Source of the DNA: a virus
Lineage: Duplodnaviria; Heunggongvirae; Uroviricota; Caudoviricetes
Length of the DNA stretch: 14,438 nucleotides
IMG/VR virus record: IMGVR_UViG_2606217109_000003
Span: 1-14,438 of that record
Strand: one strand, 5' to 3'
Part shown: one piece after another, positions 1 through 14,438 of the stretch
How positions within the stretch are numbered: the first letter of the stretch is position 1
Layout of the letters: every line of letters starts with the position of its first letter
The notes under the pieces: model-generated
The model's input: the letters and a program-made list of their open reading frames with translations, nothing else
Database searches by the model: none
Told to the model about the DNA's origin: nothing
Position numbers and translations under genes: made by a program

Positions 1-1152
1 ATGAGACGAACATTTACAGCAGAGGAAAAAGCCTCTGTTTTTGAACTATGGAAGAACGGAACAGGCTTCAGTGAAATAGCGAATATCCTGGGTTCAAAAC
101 CCGGAACGATCTTCACTATGTTAAGGGATACTGGCGGCATAAAACCCCATGAGCGTAAGCGGGCTGTAGCTCACCTGACACTGTCTGAGCGCGAGGAGAT
201 ACGAGCTGGTTTGTCAGCCAAAATGAGCATTCGTGCGATAGCTACTGCGCTGAATCGCAGTCCTTCGACGATCTCACGTGAAGTTCAGCGTAATCGGGGC
301 AGACGCTATTACAAAGCTGTTGATGCTAATAACCGAGCCAACAGAATGGCGAAAAGGCCAAAACCGTGCTTACTGGATCAAAATTTACCATTGCGAAAGC
401 TTGTTCTGGAAAAGCTGGAGATGAAATGGTCTCCAGAGCAAATATCAGGATGGTTAAGGCGAACAAAACCACGTCAAAAAACGCTGCGAATATCACCTGA
501 GACAATTTATAAAACGCTGTACTTTCGTAGCCGTGAAGCGCTACACCACCTGAATATACAGCATCTGCGACGGTCGCATAGCCTTCGCCATGGCAGGCGT
601 CATACCCGCAAAGGCGAAAGAGGTACGATTAACATAGTGAACGGAACACCAATTCACGAACGTTCCCGAAATATCGATAACAGACGCTCTCTGGGACATT
701 GGGAGGGCGATTTAGTCTCAGGTACAAAAAACTCTCATATAGCCACACTTGTAGACCGAAAATCACGTTATACGATCATCCTTAGACTCAGGGGCAAAGA
801 TTCTGTCTCAGTAAATCAGGCTCTTACCGACAAATTCCTGAGTTTACCGTCAGAACTCAGAAAATCACTGACATGGGACAGAGGAATGGAACTGGCCAGA
901 CATCTAGAATTTACTGTCAGCACCGGCGTTAAAGTTTACTTCTGCGATCCTCAGAGTCCTTGGCAGCGGGGAACAAATGAGAACACAAATGGGCTAATTC
1001 GGCAGTACTTTCCTAAAAAGACATGTCTTGCCCAATATACTCAACATGAACTAGATCTGGTTGCTGCTCAGCTAAACAACAGACCGAGAAAGACACTGAA
1101 GTTCAAAACACCGAAAGAGATAATTGAAAGGGGTGTTGCATTGACAGATTGA
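1..1152 (+). CDS. insI: IS30 family transposase (InsI)
   Basis: Full-length 383-aa ORF with ATG at 1 and TGA at 1150-1152; the sequence is recognisable as IS30 InsI. Confidence 0.93.
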   Translation: MRRTFTAEEKASVFELWKNGTGFSEIANILGSKPGTIFTMLRDTGGIKPHERKRAVAHLTLSEREEIRAGLSAKMSIRAIATALNRSPSTISREVQRNRGRRYYKAVDANNRANRMAKRPKPCLLDQNLPLRKLVLEKLEMKWSPEQISGWLRRTKPRQKTLRISPETIYKTLYFRSREALHHLNIQHLRRSHSLRHGRRHTRKGERGTINIVNGTPIHERSRNIDNRRSLGHWEGDLVSGTKNSHIATLVDRKSRYTIILRLRGKDSVSVNQALTDKFLSLPSELRKSLTWDRGMELARHLEFTVSTGVKVYFCDPQSPWQRGTNENTNGLIRQYFPKKTCLAQYTQHELDLVAAQLNNRPRKTLKFKTPKEIIERGVALTD

Positions 1153-1159
1153 ATCTACA
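1134..1159. repeat. IS30 right terminal inverted repeat (about 26 bp)
   Basis: Terminal sequence of the IS overlapping the 3' end of the transposase ORF; the element boundary at 1159 is defined by the switch to cII codons on the minus strand. Confidence 0.75.
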
Positions 1160-1203
1160 CTCTCGATTCGTAGTGCCTCGTTGCGTTTGTTTGCACGAAC
1201 CAT
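1160..1203 (-). pseudogene. cII: cII 5' fragment (first ~15 codons), truncated by the IS30 insertion
   Basis: Minus-strand reading from ATG (complement of 1201-1203) gives MVRANKRNEALRIES, the N-terminus of lambda CII, then runs into the IS30 end. The rest of cII must lie beyond the IS, outside the window. Confidence 0.85.
1181..1194 (+). promoter_or_regulatory. pRE CII-binding repeat TTGC-N6-TTGC (-35 region of pRE, reading toward cro antisense and cI)
   Basis: TTGCgtttgtTTGC overlaps the cII start codon, as in lambda. Confidence 0.6.
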
Positions 1204-1619: not shown

Positions 1620-2336
<717 letters not shown>

Positions 2337-2375: not shown

Positions 2376-2933
2376 TTGGCAAAAATAGATGATTATCAGC
2401 CAAGCCAAGTAGAAGTTGATAAAGTACTTTATTGTAAAAAAATAGTTAACTTTTCTGGCGTTAAATGGAAACAGAAACCAAGTCGCTCTGATATGTGGCT
2501 ACAAGCTCATATCATCCCCTTGGATGAGGATTGTATACCTATACAAGGGCTAAAGTTTGAACTGAAATGGAAACCAGATCAGGATTCAGAACCTGATGAC
2601 CCGATTTCTTACCCTAAAATAAATATTATTGCTTTCTATCATAACAAGAGGGTTTTCGCGGTAGATACCTATCACTTTGACAAACACACGAATAGTTACA
2701 AGGTCGATCATCCGAAGTACCAAGATATCATTTACGGTGCTCATTACCATGTATACTATGAAGAAGCTGGATACTATAGTGATAGAATAGCGTTTCCAAT
2801 CGAAGATGACATAAACCCAGATGACCTGGTAGGGTATTGGAATTACTTCTGTAAACATCTGAACATAACTTACTCTGGGAGAATACCTTTACCGCTTGAA
2901 GATGAGTCGGGGCAAATGGGGTTTGGAATATGA
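2376..2933 (+). CDS. hypothetical protein, cassette gene A in the rexA position (185 aa, acidic, Tyr/His/Asp-rich, no TM segment)
   Basis: ORF immediately downstream of cI on the same strand. The first in-frame start is TTG at 2376 (a TAA lies in frame at 2370-2372), with a G-rich SD-like cagggcgg upstream. It overlaps the next ORF in an ATGA arrangement. Not RexA by length or sequence. Confidence 0.6.
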   Translation: MAKIDDYQPSQVEVDKVLYCKKIVNFSGVKWKQKPSRSDMWLQAHIIPLDEDCIPIQGLKFELKWKPDQDSEPDDPISYPKINIIAFYHNKRVFAVDTYHFDKHTNSYKVDHPKYQDIIYGAHYHVYYEEAGYYSDRIAFPIEDDINPDDLVGYWNYFCKHLNITYSGRIPLPLEDESGQMGFGI

Positions 2934-3682
2934 TGTGCTCAACAGTGATCTCACAACTAGGTTTCGAATGCCATCCAATAGGCAAGACCTTGAGAATTAT
3001 CAGTCCATTCACTTACTGTGATGATGGAGAGCATGTCGGTGCCTTTATCCGTGAAGTCAATGGTAGGTATTTAGTTAGTGACAGATGCGATGCCTTAATG
3101 AATATGGAGGCAAGAGGGATCTCGCTTACCAAAAAACGACTTGATGAGATACGACAATTACTGCTTAAAGAAGGCGCAGAACTCAATGCTCGAGGAGAAA
3201 TCATTGCTTGGGCAACAGAAAAGGATGTCGGTGCGATTACATCGAACATAATTAGAGCTGGTATACTCGCATCAACTTTGTCGTTAGACTGGTATCAGCC
3301 AGTTCAAGCTGAAAAGTTTGAAAGTATGGTTATTGATTATCTATATCACACAGAGCTTAGAGAGGCACTTTCTCTTCGTGAAAACGTATATGGCTTGAGT
3401 GGACATCAAATTACCGTCCCTGTAACAATAAAAACCGACATACCTAAATACGTTTTTACATCAAGCGTGAAACACGGAGGAAGCTGGAATAGTGCTTACT
3501 CATTGCTTGGGAAACTAATTGATCTTAAAGCTTCAAGTGAGGAGTATAACAACAGATTTGTTGTTATAGACAGCGAAGCAATTGGTGATCAAATGCAACA
3601 ACTCTCCTTACTCTTCCATGAATCAAGCCAAGTTCTACCATTCTCCAAAAGAGAGACTTGGATTAAGAGACTTGCAGCATAA
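2930..3682 (+). CDS. hypothetical protein, cassette gene B in the rexB position (250 aa, soluble-looking)
   Basis: ATG at 2930 (or 2933) overlaps the stop of gene A (ATGATG / TGA 2931-2933), implying translational coupling. Followed at once by a rho-independent terminator. Not RexB (RexB is a 144-aa polytopic membrane protein). Confidence 0.65.
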   Translation: MMCSTVISQLGFECHPIGKTLRIISPFTYCDDGEHVGAFIREVNGRYLVSDRCDALMNMEARGISLTKKRLDEIRQLLLKEGAELNARGEIIAWATEKDVGAITSNIIRAGILASTLSLDWYQPVQAEKFESMVIDYLYHTELREALSLRENVYGLSGHQITVPVTIKTDIPKYVFTSSVKHGGSWNSAYSLLGKLIDLKASSEEYNNRFVVIDSEAIGDQMQQLSLLFHESSQVLPFSKRETWIKRLAA

Positions 3683-4114: not shown

Positions 4115-4438
4115 ATGGATGCACAAACACGCCGCCGCGAACGTCGCGCAGAGAAACAGGCTCAATGGAAAGCAGCAAATCCCCTGTTGGTTGGGGTAAG
4201 CGCAAAACCAGTTAACCGCCCTATTCTCTCGCTGAATCGCAAACCGAAATCACGAGTAGAAAGCGCACTGAATCCGATAGACCTTACAGTGCTGGCTGAA
4301 TACCACGAACAGATTGAAAGCAACCTGCAACGTATTGAGCGCAAGAATCAGCGCACATGGTACAGCAAGCCTGGCGAACGCGGCATAACATGCAGTGGAC
4401 GCCAGAAAATTAAGGGAAAATCGATTCCTCTTACCTAG
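4115..4438 (+). CDS. N: antitermination protein N
   Basis: 107-aa ORF from ATG 4115 (MDAQTRRRERRAEKQAQWKAANPLLVG...), with the arginine-rich boxB-binding motif at the N-terminus. The ORF-track start at 4025 is an upstream in-frame extension through the nutL leader. Confidence 0.95.
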   Translation: MDAQTRRRERRAEKQAQWKAANPLLVGVSAKPVNRPILSLNRKPKSRVESALNPIDLTVLAEYHEQIESNLQRIERKNQRTWYSKPGERGITCSGRQKIKGKSIPLT

Positions 4439-6011: not shown

Positions 6012-6176
6012 ATGCAATATGCCATTGCAGGGTGGCCTGTTGCTGGCTGCCCTTCCGAATCTTTACTTGAACGAATCACCCGTAAATTACGTGACGGATG
6101 GAAACGCCTTATCGACATACTTAATCAGCCAGGAGTCCCAAAAAATGGATCAAACACTTATGGCTATCCAGACTAA
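6012..6176 (+). CDS. cIII: CIII (FtsH inhibitor stabilising CII)
   Basis: 54-aa [57 protein letters not shown] with SD AAGGAG. It is below the ORF-track cutoff; the 6019-6288 track ORF is a different-frame artefact running into kil. Confidence 0.9.
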   Translation: MQYAIAGWPVAGCPSESLLERITRKLRDGWKRLIDILNQPGVPKNGSNTYGYPD

Positions 6177-6288
6177 ATTCACTATCGCCACTTTTATTGG
6201 CGATGAAAAGATGTTTCGTGAGGCCGTCGACGCTTATAAAAAATGGATATTAATACTGAAACTGAGATCAAGCAAAAGCATTCACTAA
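6145..6288 (+). CDS. kil: Kil (host cell-division inhibitor)
   Basis: 47-aa [50 protein letters not shown] overlapping the cIII 3' end and the gam 5' end, as in lambda. Confidence 0.85.
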
Positions 6289-10253: not shown

Positions 10254-10829
10254 ATGACCACTATTACCAAAGAACGTATTGAATTGTTCATTAAAAATCC
10301 GCTTGAAAACGGGCTTACTCGTGGCGAACAAATGGAACTGGCACGAATTGCACTGGCATCACTGGGAGCAGAACCTGTAAGCCAAACTTACAACTTGCCA
10401 GAATTAATCGAAGGCATGGAGGTTTCCATTGATGTAAGCACTTGTGATGCGGATTTAGGTAATCGCTATTTCGGTACCGTCACCGAGGCGTTAGAACTTG
10501 ATACTGCCAAGAATGGTTACATCCTCCTGGTTCAGGACGCAGAGCCAAACTTCGATATAAATGGCAATTCTCCGGTAACTCCGGATGGTTGGGTTATAGT
10601 GCCGAAGAAACTAACCGCTGAGAACGGCGCTAAGGGTGTGCTATCCGGTGAATTTTCAGAAACTACGTTTATAAGCTGCCCGGAATGCTTTGGTGATGAT
10701 GATTGCGAAACTTGTGACGGCAGCGGAAGAATCGAAATCAAGGTTCCAGTCAGTTGGACAACTATCAAAACTATTTGGGCTAAAGGGTGTGAGTACTTTT
10801 CAATAGTAGCACCGCAGCAAGATGGGTGA
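10254..10829 (+). CDS. hypothetical acidic protein with C-terminal zinc-ribbon-like CPEC...CETCDGSG motif (191 aa)
   Basis: ATG 10254 with SD TAAGGA, 10 bp after the previous stop. CxxC-N8-CxxCxGxG motif. No lambda counterpart as I recall it. Confidence 0.65.
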   Translation: MTTITKERIELFIKNPLENGLTRGEQMELARIALASLGAEPVSQTYNLPELIEGMEVSIDVSTCDADLGNRYFGTVTEALELDTAKNGYILLVQDAEPNFDINGNSPVTPDGWVIVPKKLTAENGAKGVLSGEFSETTFISCPECFGDDDCETCDGSGRIEIKVPVSWTTIKTIWAKGCEYFSIVAPQQDG

Positions 10830-11727: not shown

Positions 11728-11753
11728 TTGCGTGTAATTGCGGAGACTTTGCG

Positions 11754-11972
11754 ATGTACTTGACACTTCAGGAGTGGAACGCTCGCCAGCGACGCCCAAG
11801 AAGCCTTGAAACAGTTCGTCGATGGGTGCGCGAATGCAGGATATTCCCTCCTCCGGTTAAGGATGGAAGAGAATATCTGTTCCACGAATCAGCGGTAAAG
11901 GTTGACTTAAATCGACCAGTAACAGGTAGCCTTTTGAAGAGGATCAGAAATGGGAAGAAGGCGAAGTCATGA
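11754..11972 (+). CDS. xis: excisionase
   Basis: 72-aa ORF MYLTLQEWNARQRRPRSLETVRRWVRECRIFPPPVKDGREYLFHESAVKVDLNRPVTGSLLKRIRNGKKAKS, matching lambda Xis as I recall it; overlaps the int start. Confidence 0.97.
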   Translation: MYLTLQEWNARQRRPRSLETVRRWVRECRIFPPPVKDGREYLFHESAVKVDLNRPVTGSLLKRIRNGKKAKS

Positions 11973-13020
11973 GCGCCGGGATTTACCCCCTAACCTTTAT
12001 ATAAGAAACAATGGATATTACTGCTACAGGGACCCAAGGACGGGTAAAGAGTTTGGATTAGGCCGAGACAGGCGAATCGCAATCACTGAAGCTATACAGG
12101 CCAACATTGAGTTATTTTCAGGACACAAACACAAGCCTCTGACAGCGAGAATCAACAGTGATAATTCCGTTACGTTACATTCATGGCTTGATCGCTACGA
12201 AAAAATCCTGGCCAGCAGAGGAATCAAGCAGAAGACACTCATAAATTACATGAGCAAAATTAAAGCAATAAGGAGGGGTCTGCCTGATGCTCCACTTGAA
12301 GACATCACCACAAAAGAAATTGCGGCAATGCTCAATGGATACATAGACGAGGGCAAGGCGGCGTCAGCCAAGTTAATCAGATCAACACTGAGCGATGCAT
12401 TCCGAGAGGCAATAGCTGAAGGCCATATAACAACAAACCCTGTCGCTGCCACTCGCGCAGCAAAATCAGAGGTAAGGAGATCAAGACTTACGGCTGACGA
12501 ATACCTGAAAATTTATCAAGCAGCAGAATCATCACCATGTTGGCTCAGACTTGCAATGGAACTGGCTGTTGTTACCGGGCAACGAGTTGGTGATTTATGC
12601 GAAATGAAGTGGTCTGATATCGTAGATGGATATCTTTATGTCGAGCAAAGCAAAACAGGCGTAAAAATTGCCATCCCAACAGCATTGCATGTTGATGCTC
12701 TCGGAATATCAATGAAGGAAACACTTGATAAATGCAAAGAGATTCTTGGCGGAGAAACCATAATTGCATCTACTCGTCGCGAACCGCTTTCATCCGGCAC
12801 AGTATCAAGGTATTTTATGCGCGCACGAAAAGCATCAGGTCTTTCCTTCGAAGGGGATCCGCCTACCTTTCACGAGTTGCGCAGTTTGTCTGCAAGACTC
12901 TATGAGAAGCAGATAAGCGATAAGTTTGCTCAACATCTTCTCGGGCATAAGTCGGACACCATGGCATCACAGTATCGTGATGACAGAGGCAGGGAGTGGG
13001 ACAAAATTGAAATCAAATAA
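11950..13020 (+). CDS. int: tyrosine integrase
   Basis: 356-aa ORF recognisable as lambda Int (N-terminal arm-binding domain, C-terminal catalytic domain with the R...HxxR...Y signature). Confidence 0.97.
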   Translation: MGRRRSHERRDLPPNLYIRNNGYYCYRDPRTGKEFGLGRDRRIAITEAIQANIELFSGHKHKPLTARINSDNSVTLHSWLDRYEKILASRGIKQKTLINYMSKIKAIRRGLPDAPLEDITTKEIAAMLNGYIDEGKAASAKLIRSTLSDAFREAIAEGHITTNPVAATRAAKSEVRRSRLTADEYLKIYQAAESSPCWLRLAMELAVVTGQRVGDLCEMKWSDIVDGYLYVEQSKTGVKIAIPTALHVDALGISMKETLDKCKEILGGETIIASTRREPLSSGTVSRYFMRARKASGLSFEGDPPTFHELRSLSARLYEKQISDKFAQHLLGHKSDTMASQYRDDRGREWDKIEIK

Positions 13021-13154: not shown

Positions 13155-14438
13155 GTGAACACATTTTCAGTTTCCCGTCTGGCGCTGGCATTGGCTTTTG
13201 GCGTGACGCTGACCGCCTGTAGCTCAACACCACCCGATCAACGTCCTTCTGATCAAACCGCGCCTGGTACCTCTTCTCGCCCGATTCTGTCGGCAAAAGA
13301 AGCGCAGAATTTCGATGCTCAACACTATTTTGCATCCCTGACACCAGGTGCTGCAGCGTGGAATCCTTCCCCGATTACCCTGCCTGCGCAACCTGACTTT
13401 GTTGTCGGCCCGGCGGGTACTCAAGGTGTAACGCATACCACGATTCAGGCGGCGGTAGATGCGGCAATTATCAAGCGCACTAACAAGCGCCAGTATATTG
13501 CCGTGATGCCTGGTGAGTATCAGGGAACGGTGTATGTCCCTGCTGCTCCGGGTGGAATTACTCTGTACGGTACAGGTGAAAAACCGATTGATGTGAAGAT
13601 TGGGCTTTCCCTTGATGGGGGCATGAGCCCTGCCGACTGGCGTCACGACGTCAACCCGCGCGGCAAATATATGCCAGGTAAACCAGCGTGGTATATGTAC
13701 GATAGCTGCCAGAGCAAACGCAGCGACAGTATCGGTGTTCTCTGCTCTGCGGTCTTCTGGTCACAAAACAATGGCCTGCAACTGCAAAATCTGACCATCG
13801 AAAACACGCTGGGCGATAGCGTAGATGCAGGTAACCATCCGGCGGTGGCACTGCGTACTGATGGTGACCAGGTACAGATTAACAACGTTAACATTCTCGG
13901 TCGTCAGAACACCTTCTTTGTCACCAACAGCGGTGTGCAGAACCGTCTGGAAACCAACCGTCAGCCGCGTACGCTGGTGACCAACAGCTACATTGAAGGG
14001 GATGTGGATATCGTTTCTGGTCGCGGCGCAGTGGTGTTCGATAACACCGAATTCCGCGTGGTGAACTCACGTACTCAGCAAGAAGCGTATGTGTTTGCAC
14101 CGGCTACGCTGTCCAACATTTACTACGGTTTCCTCGCCGTAAACAGCCGTTTCAATGCTTTCGGTGATGGTGTGGCGCAACTGGGCCGCTCGCTGGATGT
14201 TGATGCCAATACCAACGGTCAGGTGGTGATCCGTGATAGCGCCATCAACGAAGGTTTTAACACGGCTAAACCGTGGGCCGATGCGGTGATCTCTAATCGT
14301 CCGTTTGCGGGTAATACCGGCAGCGTAGATGATAACGACGAAATACAGCGCAATCTGAATGACACTAACTACAACCGCATGTGGGAATACAATAACCGCG
14401 GCGTGGGTAGTAAAGTGGTTGCAGAGGCGAAGAAGTAA
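13155..14438 (+). CDS. ybhC: host outer-membrane lipoprotein YbhC (pectinesterase-fold family)
   Basis: 427-aa ORF with GTG start and lipoprotein signal (lipobox LTAC). Degenerate pectinesterase-like motifs (GEYQGTVYV, AVALR, DIVSG). It is the gal-side neighbour of att-lambda in E. coli. Confidence 0.88.
   Translation: MNTFSVSRLALALAFGVTLTACSSTPPDQRPSDQTAPGTSSRPILSAKEAQNFDAQHYFASLTPGAAAWNPSPITLPAQPDFVVGPAGTQGVTHTTIQAAVDAAIIKRTNKRQYIAVMPGEYQGTVYVPAAPGGITLYGTGEKPIDVKIGLSLDGGMSPADWRHDVNPRGKYMPGKPAWYMYDSCQSKRSDSIGVLCSAVFWSQNNGLQLQNLTIENTLGDSVDAGNHPAVALRTDGDQVQINNVNILGRQNTFFVTNSGVQNRLETNRQPRTLVTNSYIEGDVDIVSGRGAVVFDNTEFRVVNSRTQQEAYVFAPATLSNIYYGFLAVNSRFNAFGDGVAQLGRSLDVDANTNGQVVIRDSAINEGFNTAKPWADAVISNRPFAGNTGSVDDNDEIQRNLNDTNYNRMWEYNNRGVGSKVVAEAKK

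Follow-up and report, generated by a model that had tools for sequence, protein, structure and literature searches.

An IS30 element in codon 15 of cII in a lambda-like prophage with an intact immunity region

The 14,438-nucleotide stretch of viral DNA analyzed in this work, referred to here as the window, represents the int-to-cII arm of a lambda-like prophage located at the lambda attachment site (attB) by ybhC. Very probably, a canonical 1,221-bp IS30 element was inserted in codon 15 of the cII gene of this prophage, duplicating a CT dinucleotide and leaving a CII-null prophage in which immunity is kept. The window forms the start of draft contig JNRY01000020.1 (GCA_000704945.1) and was identical to it across the 1,700 bp that were aligned. 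The first base of this contig is IS30 base 6, 57 bp before the start of the window, so that the draft assembly breaks at the far edge of the element, and the left IS30 junction, the duplication and the other half of cII are consequently absent from it. The preliminary description had stated that the left end of the element lies outside the window, in agreement with the start of the source contig itself within IS30.

Window positions 1 to 1159 correspond to IS30 bases 63 to 1221 and showed 100% identity to copies annotated as "IS30-like element IS30 family transposase"; at least 80% of this segment is present in 3,109 of the 5,426 complete E. coli genomes. The transposase ORF (positions 1 to 1152, plus strand; element bases 63 to 1214) is intact, encodes 383 aa with an HTH_38 domain (PF13936, E=1.6e-23) and an rve (DDE) domain (PF00665, E=4e-14), and shares its orientation with cI and pRE. 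The 26-bp right inverted repeat, IRR (tgttgcattgacagattgaatctaca, ending in gaatctaca), occupies positions 1134 to 1159 on the plus strand. Given that the ATG is IS30 base 63, the end of the element at 1159 corresponds to a total of 62+1159=1221 bp, which is the canonical length. The left repeat, IRL, was read in the genome of strain STLEFF_47 (locus L001), where a comparison by eye showed 23 of its 26 positions to be complementary to IRR, and it is also readable, minus 5 bases, in the source contig (L011). A transposase of about 383 aa with HTH and rve domains, 26-bp imperfect repeats and a length of 1,221 bp together identify the element as IS30. At IS30 base 20, within positions 1 to 25 of the source contig (IS30 bases 6 to 30), a T is found (GTCAATGCAAC), whereas STLEFF_47 and other copies have a C; this T is the base at the mirror position of the right repeat and could be a copy variant, the product of end-to-end conversion or a contig-end error.

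The nucleotides that follow the element were found to be those of cII. The reverse complement of positions 1160 to 1203, ATG GTT CGT GCA AAC AAA CGC AAC GAG GCA CTA CGA ATC GAG AG, represents the first 44 nt of a lambda-type cII gene on the minus strand, namely 14 codons encoding MVRANKRNEALRIE plus 2 nt of the codon for Ser15. The same 44 nt start the gene for the intact 97-aa CII (MVRANKRNEALRIESALL..., PF05269) in nine IS-free relatives and, as the match ends there, the break falls after the second base of codon 15 (Ser, AGT). The reading frame is homologous to CII and follows cro and nutR, in keeping with the characteristic place of cII between tR1 and O and overlapping pRE. All coordinates of the preliminary description were correct, and its proposal that the right end of IS30 at 1159 abuts minus-strand codons for the CII N terminus is borne out by both the IRR end and the 44-nt match. 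It had further placed the insertion after about codon 15; cII is indeed split, but the break is inside this codon. At the junction, a "Ser15" codon is rebuilt from the terminal T of IS30, and the frame then continues for 28 codons into the element. The ORF across the junction (MVRANKRNEALRIES followed by VDSICQCNTPFNYLFRCFELQCLSRSVV) is a chimeric dead end that extends from the cII ATG into IS30 (1072 to 1203, minus strand, within the listed ORF 1072-1263) and comprises 43 aa, of which 15 are of CII type and 28 are IS encoded. No record of this exact chimeric N-terminal cII/IS30 protein was found in the protein collections looked up. The right-hand copy of the 2-bp target duplication would be the CT at 1160 to 1161, as seen in STLEFF_47.

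The remainder of the window shows the gene order of a lambda-like prophage. The bacterial gene ybhC (13155 to 14438) is followed by int (11950 to 13020) and xis (11754 to 11972), and exo, bet, kil, cIII and sieB are found, in this order from the int side, between xis and N. The ORF for the 107-aa N antiterminator is located at 4115 to 4438 (plus strand), with an N36 domain (PF11438) detected at the equivalent position of the source contig. The intact cI repressor gene (1623 to 2336, plus strand; 237 aa) is of the mEp332-type lambda immunity, and the immunity region shares 99.2% identity with phage mEp332, its closest relative, and 96.4% with lambda. A promoter scan placed pR (TTGACT-17-GATAAT) within oR at 1547 to 1575 on the minus strand, the strand that also carries cro (1322 to 1522; 66 aa; PF09048, E=3e-34) and nutR (1283 to 1314), with boxB (gccctttttcagggc) at 1283 to 1297 and boxA (taagagcg) at 1307 to 1314. 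In lambda records, rutA/rutB and cro are annotated over the nutR stretch of the window, in which the gene order cro-nutR-cII is kept. The genes and sites cro, oR, cI, N, nutR and the CII boxes of pRE and pI are all intact.

Several further features of this arm were recorded. The oR region (1540 to 1622) differs from lambda at several positions, and at the oR1 position the window has TATCACCGCTAGAGGTA as compared to TATCACCGCCAGAGGTA in STLEFF_47, the latter being also the lambda sequence. Two overlapping genes at 2376 to 3682 are situated between cI and N, exactly in the place of lambda rexA/rexB. For their products, of 185 aa (weak DUF6978 match) and 250 aa (DUF1828), PADLOC gives matches to a candidate defence pair, PDC-M24A (E=5e-4) and PDC-M24B (E=6e-10, over the full length); the cargo at the same position in STLEFF_47 is different and includes an NYN-domain protein. 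A zinc-finger motif, CxxCxGxxxCxxCxGxG (CPECFGDDDCETCDGSGRIE), is present in the 191-aa prophage protein encoded at positions 10254 to 10829; this protein is named "molecular chaperone DnaJ" in the sources, is found on more than 1,000 contigs and has no match in Pfam or PADLOC.

A copy of the same prophage without the IS was identified in the Logan assembly ERR13951101 (L002). Its sequence and that of the window agree without a mismatch for 11,177 bp rightward of the junction, and its empty site, ...GTTAAGCAACGCA[CT]CTCGATTCG, corresponding to AACGCA[CT]CTCGATT, is uninterrupted. The comparison with an IS-free copy that the preliminary description had proposed is thus available, and it reveals an intact 97-aa CII as well as O, P, ren, the nin genes, Q and the lysis genes. 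Eight more relatives have the same empty site. The identity of the IS-free copy over 11.2 kb indicates a recent insertion in the lineage of the window; compared with the sequence divergence within this prophage lineage, it is very young.

The second source of information is the complete genome of STLEFF_47 (NZ_CP058874), in which cII is interrupted by IS30 at the identical nucleotide, with the element in the orientation seen in the window. A search for both junctions showed that either of them occurs in only 1 of the 5,426 complete E. coli genomes, namely STLEFF_47, and the exact junction patterns had no matches in viral contigs (right and left junctions) or in metagenome contigs (right junction). 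The prophage of this strain is full length, from the tail fibres to int, and is located beside ybhC at the same ybhC/attB site as that of the window. Its filled site reads ...GCACT followed by TGTAGATTC on the left and ...GAATCTACA followed by CTCTCG on the right; compared with the empty site, two base pairs of the target, CT, are duplicated. The left repeat borders directly on the remaining part of cII, and O and P follow. The leftward extension that had been proposed to recover IRL, the duplication and the remainder of cII/O/P has thus been achieved in STLEFF_47, in which the duplication is observed, but not in the source contig, which ends inside IS30. The context of the replication and late genes is complete in STLEFF_47 and extends up to the lysis genes in the contig of the IS-free copy, whereas the window and its contig cover the int-to-cII arm only. 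An IS2 element is nested in the IS30 copy of STLEFF_47 (L001 2669 to 4005), flanked by a 5-bp ACACT duplication equivalent to window positions 1093 to 1097. It truncates the IS30 transposase to 370 aa, and the IS30::cII allele of this strain is therefore fixed in place and older than the IS2 insertion.

The left junction has also left a trace in protein databases. The 87-aa protein WP_032267558.1 (L001 1259 to 1522), annotated by PGAP as "lambda phage CII family protein," consists of four codons of the IS30 left repeat and CII residues 15 to 97. It is an annotation artefact of the IS30/cII junction and no real CII variant. This exact chimeric protein was found on four contigs in a collection of 15 billion proteins, three of them besides STLEFF_47, and since such a chimera arises only at the left junction, a few further carriers of this junction exist.

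These data bear on whether the join seen in the window is real and whether it reflects a simple insertion. IS30 is a repeat and is located at the end of a draft contig, as would be expected if the join at 1159/1160 were a chimera made in the repeat during assembly. Such an artefact is exceedingly improbable, given that the same junction, to the nucleotide, recurs in the complete genome of another strain that was sequenced independently, the two hosts differing by 47 mismatches in 2,946 bp across int-ybhC, and that the junction coincides with the exact IS30 terminus instead of an arbitrary position of the repeat. The alternative that in the source genome the left end of IS30 joins unrelated DNA as a result of a deletion, an inversion or IS30-IS30 recombination, leaving a prophage truncated at cII and devoid of O, P and the late genes, deserves more weight, although it too is unlikely. 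The contig stops at IS30 base 6, and the assembly provides no link from the element to the remaining part of cII. Deletions, inversions and cointegrates are among the known products of IS30 activity (PMC9333248), and several natural IS30 copies were found to have nonmatching flanks, consistent with later rearrangement. However, a break at a multicopy IS is the usual outcome of short-read assembly and as such no sign of rearrangement, and the sole complete genome with the junction, that of STLEFF_47, shows both a clean duplication of CT and the remainder of cII. In addition, the left-junction chimeric ORF is present on the three contigs other than STLEFF_47, and the RefSeq number of WP_032267558.1 may point to its origin in a 2014-era genome like JNRY01. 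That the genome of the window carries a simple insertion, and not a deletion or inversion caused by IS30, is inferred from the sequence of the different strain STLEFF_47, and few other sequences bear it out. According to this preferred reading, IS30 would have entered codon 15 by its normal copy-out/paste-in route, duplicating CT, and the left junction of the source would read GTTAAGCAACGCACT directly followed by TGTAGATTCAATTGG.

The presence of the same allele in two prophage haplotypes that are about 2.5% apart, those of the window and STLEFF_47, raises the issue of one event or two. Both known IS30::cII alleles share the site, the orientation and the att site, and their IS30 sequences are identical over 1,097 bp. 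Furthermore, a block from -650 to +137 bp around IS30 is identical between STLEFF_47 and the IS-free copy, and hence on the right side also to the window itself, and is bordered by about 2% divergence, like a recombination tract. A single ancestral insertion spread between prophage haplotypes by homologous recombination might account for these observations, but this is held to be doubtful. The prophage of the window has an IS-free twin with no difference in 11.2 kb, and between STLEFF_47 and the window there are 31 mismatches in the adjacent 1,178 bp as well as a different cargo between cI and N. The identical block corresponds to cII and the 5' end of O, which are conserved among lambda-like prophages anyway. 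Moreover, IS30 is strongly site selective (PMC9333248), and the left half-site in cII, TTGTTAAGCAACGCA[CT], resembles the natural targets AAATTGTTAATAAAGGTA[CT] and ATATTAAAAAAGGCT[AC]. Because of the IS-free twin and the known selectivity of IS30, independent insertions at a preferred target seem somewhat more probable than the transfer of one insertion by recombination.

The best-known IS30 target in lambda is a different one. According to Olasz et al. 1998, as cited in PMC9333248, the hot spot LHS is located at lambda positions 33244 to 33498. It lies in the kil/cIII overlap, corresponding to positions 6173 to 6198 of the window, where it is conserved and unoccupied, so that identity of the cII site with this hot spot was ruled out. 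Insertion at LHS appears similar to that in cII in that IS30 enters a lambda-type genome by a 2-bp staggered cut at a partly AT-rich, imperfectly symmetric target; however, the targets differ, and a crude target matrix fits the cII site no more than modestly. For this matrix, species-representative genomes were scanned with the right repeat, yielding 19 loci with 18 distinct half-sites, and the sequence of the IS-free copy was scored. Of 20,678 positions, the cII site ranked 1,290 (top 6%) and LHS 345 (top 2%), and as even the known hot spot is not near the top, the matrix has little power. Codon 15 of cII (AACGCA[CT]CTCGATT) is tentatively proposed as a previously unrecognized natural IS30 target that may have been hit independently in different lineages.

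As far as function is concerned, the sequence makes it likely that CII is null. The 5' fragment of cII would yield the 43-aa dead-end peptide, and the 3' part would have neither its own start codon nor its own ribosome site. The pRE and nutR elements, which the preliminary description had located on the cro side of the insertion along with an intact cI/pRM, are all present. The CII-binding -35 region of pRE (TTGCGTTTGTTTGC; 1181 to 1194, plus strand) is the same in IS-free relatives, and AAGTAT at 1208 to 1213 on the same strand is taken to be its -10 element on the basis of established knowledge of lambda; the expected pRE start is about 60 bp downstream of the IS30 boundary. The CII box of pI (TTGCGTGTAATTGC; 11728 to 11741, plus strand) is situated 13 bp upstream of xis, which starts at 11754. 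These are exactly the two copies of TTGC-N6-TTGC in the window, a count that is not significant given 0.9 expected copies, and the identity of the boxes is based on homology of position and not on copy number. By their sequence and homologous positions, they are assigned as predicted lambda-type CII-dependent promoter sites. The promoters pRE, pI and paQ, the last of which is beyond the window, should lose their activator and answer only to CII supplied in trans. In contrast, cI, pRM, oR, cro and N should be unaffected, and the lysogen should be stably immune.

An additional promoter provided by the element was considered. IRR holds an outward-facing TTGACA -35 hexamer at 1141 to 1146, and the IR-IR junction of IS30 forms the strong promoter Pjunc from TTGACA (PMC9333248). 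A hybrid outward promoter, which would be independent of CII and directed toward cI and the antisense strand of cro, was rejected, since the only hexamers at a distance of 16 to 18 bp in the flank, TCGATT, CGATTC and GATTCG, do not provide a -10 element; a promoter scan of the region comprising TTGACA and the IRR flank found no promoter either.

It had also been proposed that the IS may affect induction by separating the immunity region from O/P and the late genes. This is probably overstated. After induction, N would modify the pR transcripts at nutR, which is intact, as is N, and lies upstream of IS30. Modified in this way, the transcripts would probably traverse the antisense IS30 sequence (1.2 kb) and reach O, P and the late genes, and N antitermination would probably limit polarity on O/P. 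A scan of the minus strand of IS30 detected no intrinsic-terminator-like site. Classical precedents exist in lambda, where IS knockouts of this kind have been known since the 1970s; r14 is an IS1 insertion in cII and r32 an IS2 insertion nearby. The element in r14 and r32 follows nutR/tR1 and precedes O and P, as in the window, and inactivates or separates cII. Both insertion elements enhance termination, yet wild-type hosts support plaque formation by these phages, which fail only on nus mutants (PMC4807359). The termination signals added in r14 and r32 are overcome by N antitermination. In the window the element is IS30, whose polarity would presumably be limited; moreover, r14 and r32 are laboratory phage mutants, whereas the window stems from a natural prophage of a wild isolate. 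No report on N-controlled read-through of IS30 specifically was found in the literature searched. By analogy to these mutants, induction is expected to give a clear-plaque cII phage that lysogenizes poorly and not a locked-in prophage.

The same outcome is familiar from cII-null mutants of lambda, which form clear plaques, have lost the activator of pRE, pI and paQ and retain an intact cI with normal maintenance and defective establishment of lysogeny. The window resembles these mutants in the loss of the activator with an intact cI but differs from point mutants in that a 1.2-kb mobile element is present, with possible polarity and a substrate for IS30-mediated rearrangement. Another related concept is that of IS-mediated prophage decay, or "grounding" (reviewed in PMC6379469). 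Similar to this process, a host IS interrupts a prophage regulatory gene, and STLEFF_47 adds a nested IS2; in contrast, the visible arm of the prophage in the window is otherwise intact and identical to an IS-free copy, and decay has barely begun. No description of IS30 in cII was found in the literature searched. The insertion represents an ordinary inactivation of a prophage regulatory gene by an IS, has close precedents among the classical cases and implies no new mechanism.

The meaning of this insertion is mainly annotational, in that the prophage is to be regarded as a cII mutant and the IS30 marks the break of a draft assembly. The strain and the IS-free twin would form a natural pair for the study of the effects of an IS in cII on induction and lysogenization. 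That two diverged prophages carry IS30 at one and the same nucleotide and in one orientation gives a small hint on how the element chooses its targets. If codon 15 of cII was indeed hit independently in different lineages, this would represent a recurrent route in E. coli to a phage that is unable to establish lysogeny, while the host keeps immunity and the cargo genes.
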